DNA from: Candidatus Moraniibacteriota bacterium
Lineage (GTDB): Bacteria; Patescibacteriota; Minisyncoccia; Moranbacterales; GWC2-37-73
NCBI GenBank assembly: GCA_036845785.1
Contig: DAIUDF010000004.1
Coordinates: 1 to 45,192 of the forward strand
DNA: 45,192 bases
Reading direction: 5' to 3'
Every line of letters starts with the position of its first letter. Position 1 is the stretch's first letter. Made by a program: the position numbers and the translations under genes. The notes beneath the pieces are model-generated. The model had not been told where the DNA came from and made no database searches. It saw only the letters and a list, made by a program, of their open reading frames with translations. This document shows positions 4,333 to 35,591 of this stretch, piece after piece.

Positions 4333-4814
4333 ATAAGATATATCTTGATACAAACATTTTCGTCTCCTATTATAGTGATGAAGATTCCAATAGGAAACAA
4401 AAAGAAGCCGTAATAGCGGCTTTCAAAGTATTTGAACAATTAGGTGATGTGGAATTATGGACTTCAATGTGGACAATTACAGAAATGGTAAAAGTGTTAA
4501 TTCGTAATATAAAAATGGATCCAGAAATTGTTTCAGAAATTGAAAAGGAGCTTCTCAATGAATCCAGACTTTTAAATTTAAAGATACGCTTTGCAGATGT
4601 AAGTCCAATAAAAGACTATGATTTCAAAGAATTTTTCTATCATATTAGAAATGGAATACTAAACTATAATTCAGGAGTGGGAGATGTTATGCATAGCATT
4701 ATTATGAAGAATAACGATATAAAGCACATACTTACATTTGATGGTAAAGATGATTTTAAAAAGATCCCCGAATTGACTGTTATAAATCCCAAAGATGTTA
4801 AATTAGACAAGTGA
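4329..4814 (+). CDS. PIN-domain (VapC-like) ribonuclease
   Basis: IYLDTNIF...TITEM...GDVMH...ILTFD acidic-residue pattern typical of PIN domains. Confidence 0.9.
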   Translation: MNKIYLDTNIFVSYYSDEDSNRKQKEAVIAAFKVFEQLGDVELWTSMWTITEMVKVLIRNIKMDPEIVSEIEKELLNESRLLNLKIRFADVSPIKDYDFKEFFYHIRNGILNYNSGVGDVMHSIIMKNNDIKHILTFDGKDDFKKIPELTVINPKDVKLDK

Positions 4815-4957: not shown

Positions 4958-5070
4958 GGTAGGATTCGAACAGGAAAGGGGTCGGGAAAACGTGAGTTTT
5001 CCTGGGGTGGATGTATTGAAACCGCAAGGTTTCAAGGAGCAAAGCGACGTGAGATTCCTACCGCCGGAGC
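4958..5070 (+). repeat. tRNA-tail element, copy 1 (tRNA-Asn-type flanks)
   Basis: GGTAGGATTCGAAC (inverted T-loop/T-stem) + core GAAAGGGGTCGGGAAAAC..GTTTTCC..TTGAAACCGCAAGGTTTCAA + TCCTACCGCCGGAGC (T-stem, acceptor CGCCGGA, discriminator G). Core shared with 35341-35462. Confidence 0.8.
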
Positions 5071-6074
5071 GGTGGAGTTTACTTCAAAAATTGGTGCGGG
5101 GTGAAAATCCTACCGCCGGAGCAAAGAAAATAAGGCTTAAAATCGCCTTGTTTTTTGTTTATATTTTATGATATAATTAACATCTAAAAATAATTTTGCA
5201 TGAAATATGAAAATAACTTTATTTAAAAAATGGAATCTGGCAATAAAAATAGTTCCCATTCTAATTGGGATATTTATTTTAAAATTGATATTTCATAAAT
5301 TTGGCTTTGAATACATTTCTCTCAATGCTTTGTTTACCAGTCTAATCGCGGCAACAACTTTTTTGATCGGGTTTCTTATAACCGGCGTTATTTCTGATTA
5401 TAAGGAAAGTGAAAAAATTCCCGGCGATATGGCAGCCGGACTGGAATCTATTCATGATGAAATTTATATATTAGATAAAAACAAAGGTAACGAATCTACG
5501 AAAAAATATTTGAATTTCTACAAAGCTTTTTTAAATTCAATAATTGATTGGTTTTACCGAAAAGAAAAAACTAAAAACATCCTGGTGAAACTTCATCAAA
5601 TGGATGATTATTTTTCCGAATTGGAAAGCATAATTCAGCCGAATTTTCTAGCTAGAATGAAAAATGAGCAGGGAAATATAAGAAAAATGATTATTAGGGT
5701 AGATAATATTAGGGATTTGTCTTTTATACAATCAGCTTATGCTATTGTTGAATCACTGGCCTTTTTCGTAATAACCGGGCTTCTGATTTTAAAAGTCGAA
5801 CCTTTTTATGAGGCTCTTTTCTTTACGATGTTGGTTTCTTTTCTTATGGTTTATATGATTTTTTTAATTAAGGATTTGGATAATCCTTTTGATTATTCAA
5901 AAAATGGCGAGAACGGAACAGAGGTTTCCATAAAGCCCATTTATGATTTAATTGAAAGAGTGAAAGACAATAAATGATGCGCCTTGCATTATAATGGCTC
6001 TAACATTATCTATTGAGCGGAGCATCAAAGTTTACTTCAAAAAATAGTGTTGGGTGATATCCTACCGCTGGAGC
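5065..6074 (+). repeat. Imperfect ~58 bp direct repeats (5065-5122 and 6017-6074), each ending in the tRNA 3'-end copy and bracketing one gene
   Basis: CGGAGC..AGTTTACTTCAAAAA..GGGTGA..ATCCTACCGC(C/T)GGAGC in both copies. Confidence 0.75.
5207..5977 (+). CDS. Bestrophin-like (DUF4239-type) membrane protein
   Basis: Two N-terminal TMs, a soluble helical region, two C-terminal TMs ending IKDLDNPF. Confidence 0.7.
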   Translation: MKITLFKKWNLAIKIVPILIGIFILKLIFHKFGFEYISLNALFTSLIAATTFLIGFLITGVISDYKESEKIPGDMAAGLESIHDEIYILDKNKGNESTKKYLNFYKAFLNSIIDWFYRKEKTKNILVKLHQMDDYFSELESIIQPNFLARMKNEQGNIRKMIIRVDNIRDLSFIQSAYAIVESLAFFVITGLLILKVEPFYEALFFTMLVSFLMVYMIFLIKDLDNPFDYSKNGENGTEVSIKPIYDLIERVKDNK

Positions 6075-10659: not shown

Positions 10660-11340
10660 ATGATCGAGTGTAAAAATCTAACTAAAATATATAGAAATGG
10701 TGACGTAGAAACGGTGGCCCTAAACAATGTGTCTTTTGATATTGAAAAAGGCGATTTTGTTTCCATTATCGGACCATCTGGCTCAGGCAAGTCAACTCTC
10801 ATGCACATTTTGGGCGCTTTGGATACGCCGACGAGCGGAACATATTTTTTGGATGGCAAAGAGGTTTCCAAACTGAGCGATGATGATCTTTCCGAACTCA
10901 GGCGAGATAAAATCGGTTTTGTTTTTCAAGCTTTCAATTTGCTACCGCGCACGACAGTTCTCCGCAATGTTATGTTGCCGCTTTTATATTCCAATAAAAC
11001 CGAAGAAGAAAGAGTGAAAAAAGCCAAGGAATGTTTGGCTTATGCCGGCATGGAGGAAAGTAAATTTTTGAATCTTTCCAATCAGCTTTCGGGCGGGCAA
11101 ATGCAAAGAGTGGCGATTGCCCGGTCGCTTATCAACGATCCGGCAATTATTTTAGCCGATGAACCGACTGGAAACCTGGATACTAAAACTAGCCAGGTTG
11201 TTATGCAAGCTTTTCAGGAGCTCAATAGTAAGGGGCACACTATTATTTTAATTACGCATGAAATGGATATCGCTAATTATGCCAAGCGCGTGATTCATAT
11301 TCGAGACGGAATGATTGAAAAAGACGAAATCAAAAAATAA
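10660..11340 (+). CDS. ABC transporter ATP-binding protein (MacB/LolD type)
   Basis: GPSGSGKST Walker [25 protein letters not shown]. Confidence 0.96.
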
Positions 11341-11347
11341 ATTAAAT

Positions 11348-11433
11348 CCCCACTAATTTACTAATCAATTACGAATATACTAATGTACGAAAAAATGATT
11401 AGTATATTAGTAAAAAATTAGTAATTAGTTGGA
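11348..11433. repeat. ACTAAT/ACGAAT-type inverted oligomer repeat
   Basis: CCCCACTAATTTACTAATC shared with 16058-16076. Right half is runs of ATTAGT. Confidence 0.8.
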
Positions 11434-15679: not shown

Positions 15680-16051
15680 ATGCAAAATGTACAAGATGTT
15701 TTCAACAAAATTCGGGAAATGAAGAAGGAGCAAAAGGACATCCGGGATATGTATAAGGATGCCTTGGTGCAAGCGGATAAATATGAAGAAATTGTGGAAG
15801 AAATCAAAGTTCTCCGCGAAAAGAAAAAAGAAATTGAAGCCAGGATTCAGGCTGATTTGGGTCGCAGTTGGGAAAAATTTGAAGATTTGAAGTTACAAGT
15901 TGATGCTGAAAAAGAAATGTTGAATGACATTGCCATTTCAACTCTTATGAAAGGGGAAACTGTTGTTGCTAAAGATGAATTTGATAATGTCTATGAGCCG
16001 GTTTGGAAAGTTAATTTCAAGAAAACGAATTTAGGGCAAACGACAGAATAA
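15680..16051 (+). CDS. Coiled-coil hypothetical protein
   Basis: 123-aa charged helical ORF with host-like codon use. Confidence 0.8.
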   Translation: MQNVQDVFNKIREMKKEQKDIRDMYKDALVQADKYEEIVEEIKVLREKKKEIEARIQADLGRSWEKFEDLKLQVDAEKEMLNDIAISTLMKGETVVAKDEFDNVYEPVWKVNFKKTNLGQTTE

Positions 16052-16057
16052 TTTTGT

Positions 16058-16142
16058 CCCCACTAATTTACTAATCCTGTACCAATATACTAATTTTCAG
16101 AGTTTATTTGTATATTAGTAAGAGATTTGTATTTTAGTCGGA
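16058..16142. repeat. ACTAAT-type inverted oligomer repeat
   Basis: Left end matches 11348. Right end TATTAGTAAGAGATT..TTTAGTCGG matches 26462-26490. Confidence 0.8.
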
Positions 16143-16153
16143 ACATGTTAGAT

Positions 16154-17203
16154 ATGAATAATAATTTTTGGCAAGAATTATCGAAAAAGAAAAAGCCGTT
16201 TTTTGCGTTGGCACCAATGCATGACGTCACTGACATCGCCACTCGGCAGATGCTGGTTAAATATGGAAAGCCGGACGTTTTGTTCACAGAATTTGTGGCC
16301 TCAGATGGCCTCATGGACAAGAAAGGCAGGCAAGTTCTCCTGAAAACTTTGCGTTTTTTTGAAAATGAACATCCGATTGTGGCGCAATTTTTCGGAGCCA
16401 AACCGGAGAACTTTCGTGAGTGTGCTAAAATTGCCAGAGAGCTGGGTTTTGACGGAATTGACATCAATATGGGTTGTCCAGACAAAAGCGTTGTTGAGCA
16501 GGGAGCGGGTGCAGCGCTGATCAAAAACCCGAAACGAGCCAGAGAAATCATCCAGGCGACCAAAGAGGGTGCTGGCGATTTGCCTGTTTCAATCAAAACG
16601 CGCATTGGTTTTAGCCAAAATGAAATCGAAACATGGCTCCCGGAAATTTTAGCCGAAAAACCGGCAGCGATTACGATTCACGGCCGGACTAAAAAACAAG
16701 CCTTTGTTGGGGGTGCTGATTGGGATGTCATCAAAAGGGCCGCAGAAATTGCCAAGGGCTCAGGCGTTGTTATTATTGGCAATGGTGATGTTAAAAGCAT
16801 AAAAGACGGAATTTTGAAGGCCAGAAAAGCTAAAGTGCAGGGCGTTATGGCCGGGCGTGCCATTTTGGGCAATCCCTGGTTTTTCAATCGCAAGAAAAAA
16901 ATCGAAAAAATTCCGCTTAAAGAAAGGCTGGAAGCGATGATTGAACACGCTCGAATTTTCGAAAAAGAATTGAAGGGTGTTCACCCTGTTAAATCCCCGC
17001 GAAGCGGGGTCGCCAAAGGCGAATTTAACAGGGTAAAGGGTTATGACGTGATCAAGAAGCATTATGCCACTTATGCCAGAGGATTTGATGGCGCCAAAGA
17101 ACTGCGCGGGGAGCTTATGCAAACCAAAAACGCCAAGCAGGCGGAAAGAGTTGTCGAGAAATTTTTAAAAGAATATAATGAAAAAGTAATTTCTAAAAAA
17201 TAA
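16154..17203 (+). CDS. tRNA-dihydrouridine synthase (Dus family), carrying an in-frame palindromic insert
   Basis: LAPMHDVTD, DINMGCP, ITIHGRT, IGNGDV, VMAGRAILGNPW. Start may be 16145 or 16154. Confidence 0.93.
   Translation: MNNNFWQELSKKKKPFFALAPMHDVTDIATRQMLVKYGKPDVLFTEFVASDGLMDKKGRQVLLKTLRFFENEHPIVAQFFGAKPENFRECAKIARELGFDGIDINMGCPDKSVVEQGAGAALIKNPKRAREIIQATKEGAGDLPVSIKTRIGFSQNEIETWLPEILAEKPAAITIHGRTKKQAFVGGADWDVIKRAAEIAKGSGVVIIGNGDVKSIKDGILKARKAKVQGVMAGRAILGNPWFFNRKKKIEKIPLKERLEAMIEHARIFEKELKGVHPVKSPRSGVAKGEFNRVKGYDVIKKHYATYARGFDGAKELRGELMQTKNAKQAERVVEKFLKEYNEKVISKK
16981..17037. repeat. In-frame palindromic element in dus
   Basis: ACCCTGTTAAAT/ATTTAACAGGGT stem (16983-17034) with two inner hairpins. 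Encodes HPVKSPRSGVAKGEFNRVK. Confidence 0.85.
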
Positions 17204-23474: not shown

Positions 23475-23588
23475 GTATACAAACGAATTTACAAATCTAT
23501 TACTAATAAGAGGATATGCAAAATTTGAACGCAGGGAATATTTTTTTGGTTTATTTGTATATTTGTATATAATTTGTAATTTTGTAGG
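23475..23588. repeat. ACAAAT/ACTAAT-type inverted oligomer repeat
   Basis: TACAAACGAATTTACAAAT..TACTAAT mirrored by ATTTGTATATTTGTAT..ATTTGTAATTTTGTAGG. Confidence 0.7.
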
Positions 23589-26384: not shown

Positions 26385-26402
26385 TGCTTAATATAAATAA
26401 TA

Positions 26403-26492
26403 ACCTACTAAAATACGAATTTTATACTAATATACTAATTAAATTTAAAAGCACATTAGTATATTAGTAAGAGATTAGTAATTTAGTCGGGT
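26403..26492. repeat. ACTAAT-type inverted oligomer repeat
   Basis: TACTAAAATACGAAT..TACTAATATACTAAT / ATTAGTATATTAGTA..ATTAGTAATTTAGT. Confidence 0.8.
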
Positions 26493-26550
26493 GTTGATTA
26501 ATTTTTTAACCCATACTCTATTTATTTTCCCCACAGGAGAGAAAAAATAA

Positions 26551-26855: not shown

Positions 26856-27050
26856 ATTTTCTCCACTTTTCTTTTACACAAAAGAAAAGTGGAAGAAAAG
26901 AAAACTTCGCACCCAGATGAAGTGCTGTGGAAAATTCTAAGCTCACTCGCTAAAATTTACACTTCGCTTCGCTACGTTTCAAAATTTTTTAACGCTCACT
27001 CGCTTGAATTTTCTTACGCACTTCATGGGGTGCGGAAAATACGAAAATTC
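26856..27050. repeat. Dispersed MITE-like repeat, copy 1 (3'-truncated)
   Basis: TCCACTTTTCTTTT-acac-AAAAGAAAAGTGGA hairpin and following ~70 nt nearly identical to 31441-31530. Confidence 0.8.
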
Positions 27051-28010: not shown

Positions 28011-28306
28011 AAAGTTTTTTGAAATTCGTATACTAACTTTTCTTTCTAGAAAGAAAAGTTACAAAAGAAAGTCGCGCCAGGATGAAGATACTGTGGCAAG
28101 CGCTTCGTTCTTCGCTAAATTTTCTATTTCGGGCTCAGAGAAAATTTTTAACGCTCATCACTCGCGCTTTGTCCGCCTCGGCGAGCCTCGAGCGAGACGG
28201 GCCTACGTACTTCATATGGCGCCCTTGAAATGCGGAATGCAAATTCAAAAATGCAATTCAGGGTTTAATTGATTAAAAATTAAGCACTGATAGTACTTTT
28301 GAAAAA
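28011..28306. repeat. Dispersed MITE-like repeat, copy 2
   Basis: Starts AAAGTTTTTTGAAATT and ends CTGATAGTACTTTTGAAAAA. A 35-nt block at 28236-28270 is identical to 31642-31676. Confidence 0.8.
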
Positions 28307-30412: not shown

Positions 30413-31423
30413 ATGGCAAGTTCAAAAGACATTCGACGTCGAATAAAATCTATAAATAGCACCAAAAAAATAACTCGCGCTATGGAGATGGTTAGCGCTG
30501 CTAAAATGAGAAAAGCTGTTGCCAGCGTTATTGCGATTCGTCCTTATGCTCACAGCGCTTGGAGCGTACTGACTAATTTGGCCAGAGCTTATGAATCGCA
30601 TGGGCGCGGACTTTTGGAAATCAGGGAAGTCAAAAGCGTTTTGATTGTGGTGGTGACATCAAATCGCGGACTTTGCGGATCATTCAACACTCAAATTGCC
30701 AAAAAAATAAAAGATGAAATTTTGCATCCGGAAAAATTGAAAATCAACCGCATTAACGGTAAAAAATTGGATTCGAAAATTAAAGATGAAGACCTCCGGA
30801 TTGATTTTATTGTAATTGGGAAAAAAGGCGAGGGGATTGTGCGCAAACTTCACCCTGTTAAATCCGCCGAAGGCGGTCCTGCTTCGCAGGAATTTAACAG
30901 GGTAAAGCAGGAGATTATTGCTTCTTTTGCGGATGGCGGTCAATTTGTTTCAGCCAATGATATCAAACCGCTTTCCAAAATTGTGATTGATGATTATTTG
31001 AATAAAAAATATGACAAAGTAGTGGCGATTTATACCGACTATCTCTCAACGATTGTGCAGAAAACCCGTATTCGCCAGATTTTGCCGATTTCTAAAATTG
31101 ATATCGAAAAACAGATTGCTGAAATGGATGTGATTGCCAAAGAATATGGGCTTTCTGAGTCAGTAGTGGAATATAAAGTGGAACCGAGTCCGCGGGAAGT
31201 TTTGGAATTTATTATTCCGCGCCTGATTGAAATGCAGCTTTTCCATGCGATTTTGGAATCGAAAGCTTCGGAAGAAAGTGCGCGCATGATGGCGATGAGA
31301 AATGCGACGGATGCGGCGGGAGAAATGTCGGAAGATTTGACGTTGGCTTACAATCAGATCAGGCAGGGAAAAATTACGCAGGAAATCGCGGAGATCAGTG
31401 CTGGCCGCGCTGCTCTGGAATAA
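30413..31423 (+). CDS. atpG: ATP synthase F1 subunit gamma, with palindrome-encoded insert
   Basis: KKITRAMEMVSAAKMRKA, SNRGLCGSFN, RMMAMRNATD, RQGKITQEIAEI. Confidence 0.97.
   Translation: MASSKDIRRRIKSINSTKKITRAMEMVSAAKMRKAVASVIAIRPYAHSAWSVLTNLARAYESHGRGLLEIREVKSVLIVVVTSNRGLCGSFNTQIAKKIKDEILHPEKLKINRINGKKLDSKIKDEDLRIDFIVIGKKGEGIVRKLHPVKSAEGGPASQEFNRVKQEIIASFADGGQFVSANDIKPLSKIVIDDYLNKKYDKVVAIYTDYLSTIVQKTRIRQILPISKIDIEKQIAEMDVIAKEYGLSESVVEYKVEPSPREVLEFIIPRLIEMQLFHAILESKASEESARMMAMRNATDAAGEMSEDLTLAYNQIRQGKITQEIAEISAGRAALE
30850..30907. repeat. In-frame palindromic element in atpG (same family as the dus insert)
   Basis: ACCCTGTTAAAT/ATTTAACAGGGT (30852-30903). Encodes HPVKSAEGGPASQEFNRVK. 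Confidence 0.85.
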
Positions 31424-31707
31424 AAAGTTTTTTGAAATTAATTCTCCACTTTTCTTTTACGCAAAAGAAAAGTGGAAGAAAAGAAAACTTCGCACGCGGA
31501 TGAATTTCTGTGGCAAATTCTAAGCTCGTTCGCTAAAAAATCTAACTCGTCCCGCCAAGGCGGGACTCAGACAGAGATTTTTCTTAACGCTCATTCGCTT
31601 GAATTTGCTGACGAAATTCATAGTGTGCGGGAAATGCAAGAAATGCAAATTCAAAAATGCAATTCAGGGTTTAATTAAAATTAAATTCTGATAGTACTTT
31701 TGAAAAA
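31424..31707. repeat. Dispersed MITE-like repeat, copy 3
   Basis: Same left and right ends as 28011-28306. 5' half matches 26856-27050. Confidence 0.8.
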
Positions 31708-35340: not shown

Positions 35341-35462
35341 GTGCCCGAAGAGAGACATCTCACTCGTTCCGACAAGTCGGAACTCTTTGAAACCTTGCGG
35401 TTTCAATGCTTCCACCGCGGGAAAACTCTTGTTTTCCCGACCCCTTTCTTTGTTCGAGTCTC
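35341..35462 (-). repeat. tRNA-tail element, copy 2 (tRNA-Leu flanks)
   Basis: Minus strand GAGACTCGAAC (inverted T-loop of the adjacent tRNA-Leu) + shared core + GTCTCTCTTCGGGCAC (direct copy of the tRNA 3' end). Confidence 0.85.
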
Positions 35463-35509
35463 AATCAACAAAAAACAAAAAACTTCCCAAAGGAAGTTTC
35501 TTGTTTTTG

Positions 35510-35591
35510 TGCCCGAAGAGAGACTCGAACTCTCATGGCTTGCGCCACACGATTTTGAGTCGTGCGTGTATACCAATTTCACCACTCGGGC
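35510..35591 (-). tRNA. tRNA-Leu(CAA)
   Basis: Acceptor GCCCGAG/TTCGGGC, anticodon arm CACGA-CTCAAAA-TCGTG, long variable arm, GAGAG-TTCGAGT-CTCTC T-arm. CCA not encoded. Confidence 0.96.

Follow-up and report, generated by a model that had tools for sequence, protein, structure and literature searches.

How one palindrome could come to be read in the same frame of two unrelated genes is the question raised by a stretch of 45,192 nucleotides from a Candidatus Moraniibacteriota bacterium (assembly GCA_036845785.1, contig DAIUDF010000004.1, forward strand), referred to here in its whole length as the window. The genes are dus, encoding a tRNA-dihydrouridine synthase, and atpG, encoding the gamma subunit of the F1 ATP synthase. 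An earlier note, made from the sequence alone, had likened the shared palindrome to the palindromic elements of Rickettsia and suspected an active mobile family behind it. Comparison with orthologs and with copies from other genomes leads to the reading, with a probability of about three in four, that a short palindromic element, mobile but non-autonomous, was recently inserted into both dus and atpG.

The first copy is a 54-nt unit at 16982–17035, which encodes HPVKSPRSGVAKGEFNRV in frame within dus (16145–17203, 352 amino acids), and the second, likewise of 54 nt, lies at 30851–30904 and encodes HPVKSAEGGPASQEFNRV in frame within atpG (30413–31423, 336 amino acids); genes, units, arms, and hairpins are all given on the plus strand. 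Copy 1 falls inside the open reading frame (ORF) at 16127–17203, identified as Dus by Pfam PF01207 and PDB entry 1vhn (E=3.6e-30), and copy 2 inside the ORF at 30413–31423, identified as ATP synthase gamma by PF00231 and a PDB match (E=1e-49); the best protein matches of both ORFs are named Candidatus Moranbacteria. The unit of copy 1 has the layout 5'-C ACCCTGTTAAAT [hairpin 1][hairpin 2] ATTTAACAGGGT A-3', with a left arm at 16983–16994, two inner hairpins predicted by folding, CCCCGC-GAA-GCGGGG at 16995–17009 and TCGCC-AAA-GGCGA at 17010–17022, and a right arm at 17023–17034. In copy 2, the arms at 30852–30863 and 30892–30903 enclose the predicted hairpins CCGCC-GAA-GGCGG (30864–30876) and TCCTGC-TTC-GCAGGA (30877–30891). 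The palindromes are thus where the earlier note had placed them, with 12-nt arms (ACCCTGTTAAAT and ATTTAACAGGGT) that are identical between the copies and inner hairpins that differ, and the common frame that it had read, HPVKS-x8-EFNRVK, is found in both. Its size of 52 nt is correct as the arm-to-arm span of each copy but not as the inserted unit, which is 54 nt, or 18 codons, because each side has one more conserved base, together forming a non-complementary C...A pair. Each copy folds into the Y on either strand; the energies lie between -31.6 and -37.6 kcal/mol and the z-scores between -5.2 and -9.0, and 0 of 200 shuffles folded as well. Arm pairs with up to three mismatches are limited to these two in the 45 kb, where 0.06 would be expected by chance.

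The gain of these residues can be followed in orthologs that lack them. The closest orthologs of Dus, 76–85% identical, are without exactly 18 residues, reading KELKG|VKGYD where the window reads KG[VHPVKSPRSGVAKGEFNR]VKGYD, and the closest ortholog of AtpG (P0123, locus L121; 89% identical) is likewise without the 18 codons, reading VRKL|QKNII against VRKL[HPVKSAEGGPASQEFNRV]KQEII in the window. The indel that the earlier note expected from such alignments, at about 19 residues, is therefore present at exactly 18. In DNA, the GGT GTA AAR of the empty Dus alleles in orthologs L123 and L128 corresponds to GGT GT[T CAC CCT ... AGG GT]A AAG in the window, a gain of exactly 54 nt with zero nt duplicated. 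In four filled/empty pairs (gains of 54, 54, 48, and 57 nt, with 48 and 57 from further AtpG pairs), the gain equals the span plus 2 nt, no target-site duplication was found, and the flanks are not direct repeats. By these comparisons the element enters DNA without target-site duplication, adding its span plus 2 nt. Exact-flank scans of the metagenome collection returned no empty alleles of this very strain.

The distribution of filled and empty sites across homologs adds to this picture. Among the 120 closest homologs of AtpG, the site is empty in 96 and holds a copy of the PVK type in 7, and each filled allele has empty nearest neighbors at 89–98% identity. Parsimony on a neighbor-joining tree of AtpG gives 6 state changes for the 7 PVK-filled alleles. 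A second, unrelated palindromic insert (xPARNA...AGG) occupies the same codon in 6–7 of the 120 homologs, also with 6 state changes, and the AtpG ortholog P0209 has a copy of the PVK type in a different loop. The Dus site is empty in 86 of its 120 closest homologs. In the distant Dus ortholog P0022, the copy has an arm variant that recurs in an intergenic copy at the same locus (L127), and its insert points to an independent insertion at the same Dus site. In structure models, the dus insert sits in a coil between helices of the C-terminal helical domain, and the atpG insert is a low-confidence loop (residues 148–163) in the globular domain, with a helix on one side and a strand on the other; as the modeled inserts coincide with coil or with segments of low predicted confidence (pLDDT), they may be read as tolerated loops.

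The wider family was collected by a scan of species-representative genomes for both exact arms, 20–40 nt apart. Because exact arms were required and the matches listed are a subset, the family is more diverse and its copies more numerous than these figures indicate; taxonomic names follow the record titles, and ORF calls in the loci are mechanical. The search for further copies that had been suggested at the outset found at least 129 exact-arm copies in at least 120 loci among the matches listed. About 69 of the loci listed are from Patescibacteria, 13 from Desulfobacterota (in the wide sense), 12 from Omnitrophota, 7 from Bacteroidota, 3 from WOR-3, 3 from genomes labeled Gammaproteobacteria, and 1 each from Cloacimonadota, Spirochaetales, and Verrucomicrobiota, with 10 unclassified. 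A family specific to the candidate phyla radiation (CPR), as first supposed, is not what emerges, the exact arms being spread over at least eight bacterial phyla. Several of the non-CPR matches lie on contigs of 0.25–6.5 Mb, including contigs of 4–6 Mb from Desulfatiglandales, so these matches are not accounted for by errors of binning. Closer to the window, a near-identical copy in rmlD of another Moranbacteria genome (L107) differs from the Dus copy at 3 of 52 nt, and two of the three differences form a compensatory pair.

In the copies listed, the arm-to-arm span varies from 45 to 65 nt, with modes at 58, 56, 55, and 52, and the unit length from 47 to 67 nt; longer noncoding variants of 120–150 nt were also seen among the loci. 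The terminal inverted repeats are exact over 12 nt and reach 15 nt with one C/A mismatch, and because this one conserved end pair is non-complementary, the element has polarity. With its flanks it typically reads TTC|ACCC...GGGT|AAA, with the arm ACCCTGTTAAAT, and flanks of the form TTC|...|AAA, or the reverse complement TTT|...|GAA, accompany 68 of the 129 copies listed. Arm variants stay complementary, as in the compensating pair ACCCCGTTAAAT / ATTTAACGGGG (ACCCCG..CGGGG) and in the TGAAAT / ATTTCA variant of L127. Nesting occurs as well: in L081, one element takes the place of hairpin 2 in another. Some copies abut each other with a fixed 2-nt spacer.

Between the arms, it is the shape of the interior that recurs. 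Two inner hairpins are present in 104 of 131 copies, and 93 of these 104 have a three-way junction of the 0/0/0 type, with no unpaired bases, while the interiors of the 131 copies fall into 98 sequence clusters. The hairpin loops are mostly triloops closed by C-G (TTT, GAA, AAA, TTC). In two length classes, 97% of cells are paired, with changes on both sides in 8 of 14 and 13 of 14 pairs, although these classes were picked by folding and the pair count therefore leans toward structure. The compensatory changes in the inner hairpins support the kept pairing that the earlier note had seen in two copies, and they suggest that the structure is under constraint with the hairpin sequence free to vary. 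Adaptation of the interior to host composition was set aside, the correlation between interior GC content and locus GC content being weak (rho = 0.21).

The earlier picture of an element found as an insert in genes also changes with the larger sample, for the element is mainly intergenic: about 85% of the listed copies lie between genes and about 20 of 131 (~15%) inside long ORFs. The noncoding copies are mostly in short spacers between genes of the same direction, often a few tens of bases 3' of a stop codon, and in nine cases the element itself provides the stop codon. Orientation with respect to transcription is 20:20, so the element seems to act at the DNA level and not through RNA orientation; selection at the RNA level is not supported. 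The in-frame hosts are unrelated to one another and include an amidase, KsgA, glycosyltransferases, Pol III delta', a DsbD-like protein, MotA/ExbB, a class-V aminotransferase, FtsZ, a SAM methyltransferase, PGK, PMT_2, ThiI, TsaE, RmlD, and Rpe. In PGK and Rpe, alignment with solved homolog structures identifies the inserts as extra residues.

Within genes, the reading frame is strictly limited. In 17 of 20 coding copies, the PVK..FNRV frame is combined with a span equal to 1 mod 3. One of the other frames meets TAA inside the arm (CCC TGT TAA), and the third, TTC ACC CTG TTA AAT ... GGG TAA (or TGA), meets a stop at the right boundary, staying open only where the right flank is neither A nor G, which is the case in three copies. 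Because both other frames hit stop codons, the common frame is a survival filter: a copy in a gene survives only in the stop-free frame and only with a length divisible by three. Of the selection on frame proposed in the earlier note, the constraint itself thus stands, and its cause lies in the stop codons of the element. The strictness of this filter on frame and length also argues that the copies are translated and not bypassed. A surviving copy would add a surface loop of 16–19 residues (xPVK...FNRVx), as it appears to have done in dus and atpG. Since the coding copies are all preceded by NTT and followed by AAR or AAC, the pre-insertion site looks like TT^AA (T-T^A-A, or NTT|AAR in genes).

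How such an element would move can be proposed from its anatomy. It carries no enzyme and would be moved in trans. A single strand would fold into the Y, with the 12-bp arm stem closing on two hairpins and leaving no unpaired junction bases; a structure- and sequence-specific nuclease of the HUH (IS200/IS605 or RAYT) kind would cut at the stem base, perhaps at a replication fork, and the folded single strand would be excised and then reinserted. A folded single-strand substrate is suggested by the absence of duplication, by the obligatory fold-back with a perfect junction, by the lack of transcription bias, and by copies that insert into or beside other hairpin elements. Enzymes of the IS200/IS605 and RAYT families follow the logic of a folded single-strand substrate cut at the stem base (PMC3733652, PMC3116915). 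Excision and reinsertion of a folded strand by an HUH-type nuclease is the foremost candidate mechanism, although it is a tentative one with somewhat less than an even chance of being correct. No sign was found that the element does anything for its host.

Searches for a mover, a parent element, or a known relative found none in the material covered. Domain searches of the roughly 40 ORFs of the window identified no transposase, recombinase, or HUH domain. Around the 120 loci, all-against-all clustering of 1,512 ORFs yielded no linked protein family in more than 7 loci, the recurrent ones being housekeeping, and in a Pfam scan of the 148 nearest ORFs, the 191 families returned include no transposase and have 3 members at most. 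A RAYT/TnpA-type HUH nuclease, which the earlier note had suggested looking for nearby, was not seen: neither the window nor those 148 ORFs yielded a RAYT or any other HUH nuclease, and none is enriched beside the 120 loci. An autonomous partner was also not seen, as 950 kb of loci contained no arm pair 0.6–3 kb apart and no long element with the same arms. The plasmid collection gave no match to the element, and viral contigs gave one match among 2.9 million, so that phages are not an obvious vector. A search of the window at Rfam gathering thresholds returned one tRNA only and no family for the element, and permissive Rfam searches of the element and of the composite block described below gave only chance-level or sub-threshold matches. 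In the literature, full-text searches found the arm sequences only in unrelated primers and sequences, and keyword searches found no description of such a family.

Several observations weigh against insertion by mobile DNA of this kind. Neither the window nor the 148 nearest ORFs offered a mobilizing enzyme, the case for an HUH mechanism is an anatomical one, and no feature that defines the IS200/IS605 or RAYT families was recognized. Copy number looks low, with 2 in the 45 kb and at least 1–7 loci per metagenome-assembled genome among those listed, which is unusual for families resembling the REP sequences (repetitive extragenic palindromes), and identical arms in many phyla are hard to explain by a lineage-specific transposase. 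A leeway of 1–2 nt is left in placing the ends of the insertion, because the nearest empty alleles are just 81–92% identical in DNA. In the closest AtpG pair (P0125 and P0138), the codons flanking the insert differ as well, so that exchange of alleles by homologous recombination may explain some of the patchiness. Finally, left and right flanks are alike in significantly more cases than under shuffled pairing (28 vs 4.9 +/- 2.1). This flank similarity has inconsistent offsets, and its clearest cases, clean 8-nt repeats, lie inside larger WOR-3 repeats; its interpretation as target duplication was rejected after comparison of empty and filled alleles.

Other explanations must account for the same data. 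That the residues are a loop inherited from the ancestors of Dus and AtpG, or arose as an artefact of assembly, has next to no chance of being right, although in more distant orthologs of both proteins the same codon does hold inserts of related appearance. In the closest orthologs the site is empty; the distant inserts, which the earlier note would have counted against insertion had they been the same residues kept as an ancestral loop, have arm variants of their own, one of which recurs elsewhere in the same genome (L127); and the element is present in more than 90 independent assemblies, including multi-megabase contigs, with reading frames kept open. A quite different account, also unlikely, has a tyrosine recombinase of the Xer/IntI kind acting on the element as its substrate, with the arm as half-site and cleavage at the element boundary; a conserved host recombinase exploited by the element would then lie behind the invariance of the arm across phyla. 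The absence of target duplication and the exact arms in many phyla are compatible with this, the arm's outer 8 nt are the same as those of dif's XerD arm, TTATGTTAAAT (PMC2731167), and copies abutting as ATTTAACAGGGT-GA-ACCYCGTTAAAT make dif-like 26-bp palindromes in at least six loci. Unmatched, nevertheless, is the inner portion of that XerD arm, where conservation in dif is highest (PMC2731167), the target sites have only TT^AA in common and no second arm, and several arm variants coexist in one genome; the possible XerD link is kept as a weak lead only. The integron attC sites offer a further parallel, as they too have a conserved base stem, a variable and possibly branched terminal structure, and a folded single-strand function, and as the GTTAAAT and ATTTAAC of the arms fit the GTTRRRY and RYYYAAC core/inverse-core motifs (PMC3053210). 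In attC, however, 5'-RYYYAAC ... GTTRRRY-3' bounds an imperfect palindrome of 57–141 bp (PMC3053210), whereas in the element the order is GTTAAAT ... ATTTAAC on both strands, most copies are without extrahelical bases, cassette arrays and an integrase (intI) are not found nearby, and copies are isolated, sitting inside genes or in operon spacers. An attC reading was rejected on the reversed motif order. Broader in scope and similarly improbable is a pan-bacterial parasite, or domesticated site, of some conserved host enzyme that all carrier phyla possess and that recognizes arm and junction, for example, a Xer-type recombinase or other structure-specific nuclease. This would explain identical arms from Patescibacteria to Bacteroidota without a linked transposase and, if true, would represent a new class of mobile DNA needing no gene of its own anywhere.

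A more conventional origin, as an ordinary MITE (a miniature transposable element with inverted repeats) derived by deletion from an insertion sequence (IS) and moved by a DDE transposase binding the terminal repeats, with incidental inner hairpins, is quite unlikely. The terminal inverted repeat of 12–15 bp, the small size and mostly intergenic placement (about 90% of MITEs are reported to be intergenic; PMC11602168), and the excess similarity between flanks would all suit such an element, but target duplication is missing from the four filled/empty comparisons, no parent element with the same arms and no transposase were seen in or beside the loci, and the perfect two-hairpin junction is kept by compensatory change, unlike a functionless spacer. 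Very unlikely, in turn, is a structured element selected by the host, such as an mRNA processing or stability signal or a protein-binding site, with the coding copies as by-products. Conservation of the arm across phyla while the interior covaries would be expected of such an element, as would copies in spacers inside gene strings, often 6–60 nt after a stop codon, and the conserved three-hairpin block that holds the element in several CPR genomes and fills the TAA-to-ATG gap of unrelated genes. Its presence and absence are patchy among close relatives, however, copies lie inside unrelated enzymes, orientation is evenly divided, no Rfam family matches, and the only two copies in the 45 kb are both in genes.

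Insertion of a non-autonomous palindromic element, the reading preferred here, invites comparison with known systems that share one or another of its features. Palindrome-associated elements derived from IS200/IS605 have subterminal hairpins and no terminal inverted repeats, and they insert 3' of a fixed tetra- or pentanucleotide without duplication. The element fits these in its lack of duplication and its conserved left flank, (A/G)TTC, and differs in its true inverted arms and symmetric flanks (TT...AA). The REP sequences and REPINs are likewise short, GC-rich, and palindromic; most are extragenic, and they cluster with other hairpin repeats or abut them. Certain REPs are located within ORFs or provide stop codons (PMC3733652), as do some copies of the element, and both are non-autonomous, make no target duplication, and are presumed to use a folded single-strand substrate (PMC3733652, PMC3116915). 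REPs, however, are single imperfect hairpins of 20–40 nt tagged with GTAG or CGTC, occur in hundreds of copies, and flank a RAYT gene, whereas the element has no tag, a perfect three-way junction, a seemingly low copy number, and no RAYT in the ORFs examined. The CGTC and GTAG tags are absent from its arms, and its ends read TTC|ACCCTG...CAGGGT|AAA.

The likeness to the Rickettsia palindromic elements from which the question began is borne out in the addition of peptides. These are also palindromic selfish repeats found both between genes and in frame in conserved genes, to whose products they add a peptide (PMC1779305), and both families have a lineage-specific spread, with the same gene filled in some lineages only. 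The Rickettsia elements differ in being 100–150 bp long and limited to Rickettsiales (PMC1779305), with a CGTC end tag (PMC3733652), none of which is true of the element, with its 47–67 nt, its branched Y of two hairpins, its different arm, and its presence in at least eight phyla. MITEs such as Coxiella QMITE1/2 and the Correia elements resemble it in having terminal inverted repeats, no coding capacity, stable stem-loops, and occasional in-frame insertion (PMC5896051, PMC10969869), but they usually have direct repeats of the target (2–11 nt in QMITEs; PMC5896051), lengths of 100–400 bp, and a recognizable parent IS, in contrast to 0-nt duplication, about 54 nt, and no parent IS seen here. 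The GC clusters of yeast mitochondria are also short mobile GC-rich palindromes that can lie within protein-coding genes (PMC4478555), in a different domain of life and with different sequences. Because neither Rfam nor full-text searches with the arm sequences gave a match, the element is placed outside every named family, as a small non-autonomous palindromic mobile element that in function resembles Rickettsia palindromic elements and intragenic REPs but differs from these, and from MITEs, in its size, branching, lack of tags and duplication, and arm unchanged across phyla.

An identical arm across phyla, an interior of fixed shape and free sequence, and insertion without duplication are together unlike any described REP, MITE, or Rickettsia palindromic element family, and the combination points to a route of mobilization not yet described. 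The very small genomes of uncultured bacteria such as Moranbacteria and other Patescibacteria would thus still carry active selfish DNA, which writes loops of 16–19 residues into essential proteins, including ATP synthase gamma, FtsZ, PGK, GatA, and KsgA. The copies in genes form a natural series of insertion-tolerant sites. As annotators and protein-family models meet these inserts as unexplained indels, the arm motif may serve as a simple marker.

Other repeats and inserts were also noted. The second in-frame palindromic insert at the AtpG codon occurs in other Moranbacteria (L126 (P0137), P0154, P0188, P0194, P0211, and P0214) and also at the N terminus of Dus P0036; its peptide is xPARNA(S/T)...(D/V)AGG and its DNA starts with CGACCTGCCCGCAATGC. 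The conserved three-hairpin block of several CPR genomes measures about 200 nt and has the element as its middle module, TAAAGGGCTTG...CAAACCTTT | element | GCTGAATTTT...AAAATTCGC; it spans TAA to ATG of unrelated genes (rpsM, rpsO, an ABC-F ATPase, and a histidine kinase) and was seen at L119 4540–4770, L099 3000–3215, L003, L020, L050, L072, L073, L076, L083, and L100. Beside the block in L119, at 4530–4567 upstream of rpsM, lies a sub-threshold Rfam match to the alpha-operon ribosome binding site (29.6 bits vs a gathering threshold of 38). Three WOR-3 loci (L027, L053, and L060) have the same arms around an AT-rich interior of 39–41 nt without hairpins, flanked by a recurring 8-mer, ATCTGCGT; two of these copies are 248 nt apart and appear to be part of a larger repeat.

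The window itself holds three further kinds of repeat. Copies or fragments of a repeat of about 200–250 nt, 81–92% identical and starting with the hairpin TTCTCCACTTTTCTTTTACRCAAAAGAAAAGTGGAAGAA, lie in spacers of the atp operon at 26859–27047, 31442–31700, and 28236–28306 (sites preceding atpF, following atpG, and following atpH, respectively). Four copies are present of an intergenic repeat that is AT-rich and palindromic (CCCCACTAATTTACTAAT ... ATTAGTATATTAGTAAGAGATTAGTAATTTAGTCGGG), at 11332–11426, 16050–16141, 23538–23588, and 26394–26507, one of them directly upstream of dus. A repeat of 66–85 nt with two hairpins is found at 4974–5039 and, inverted and 89% complementary, at 35383–35448, with a partial copy at 6018–6057; one copy is about 60 nt from tRNA-Leu(CAA) (35509–35591, minus strand), and the other follows a PIN-domain gene. 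In a related Moranbacteria locus (L124), small 23S_rRNA_IVP and GIY-YIG ORFs lie between atp genes at 1550–1900 and 2531–2812, and the atp operon there seems to collect selfish inserts.

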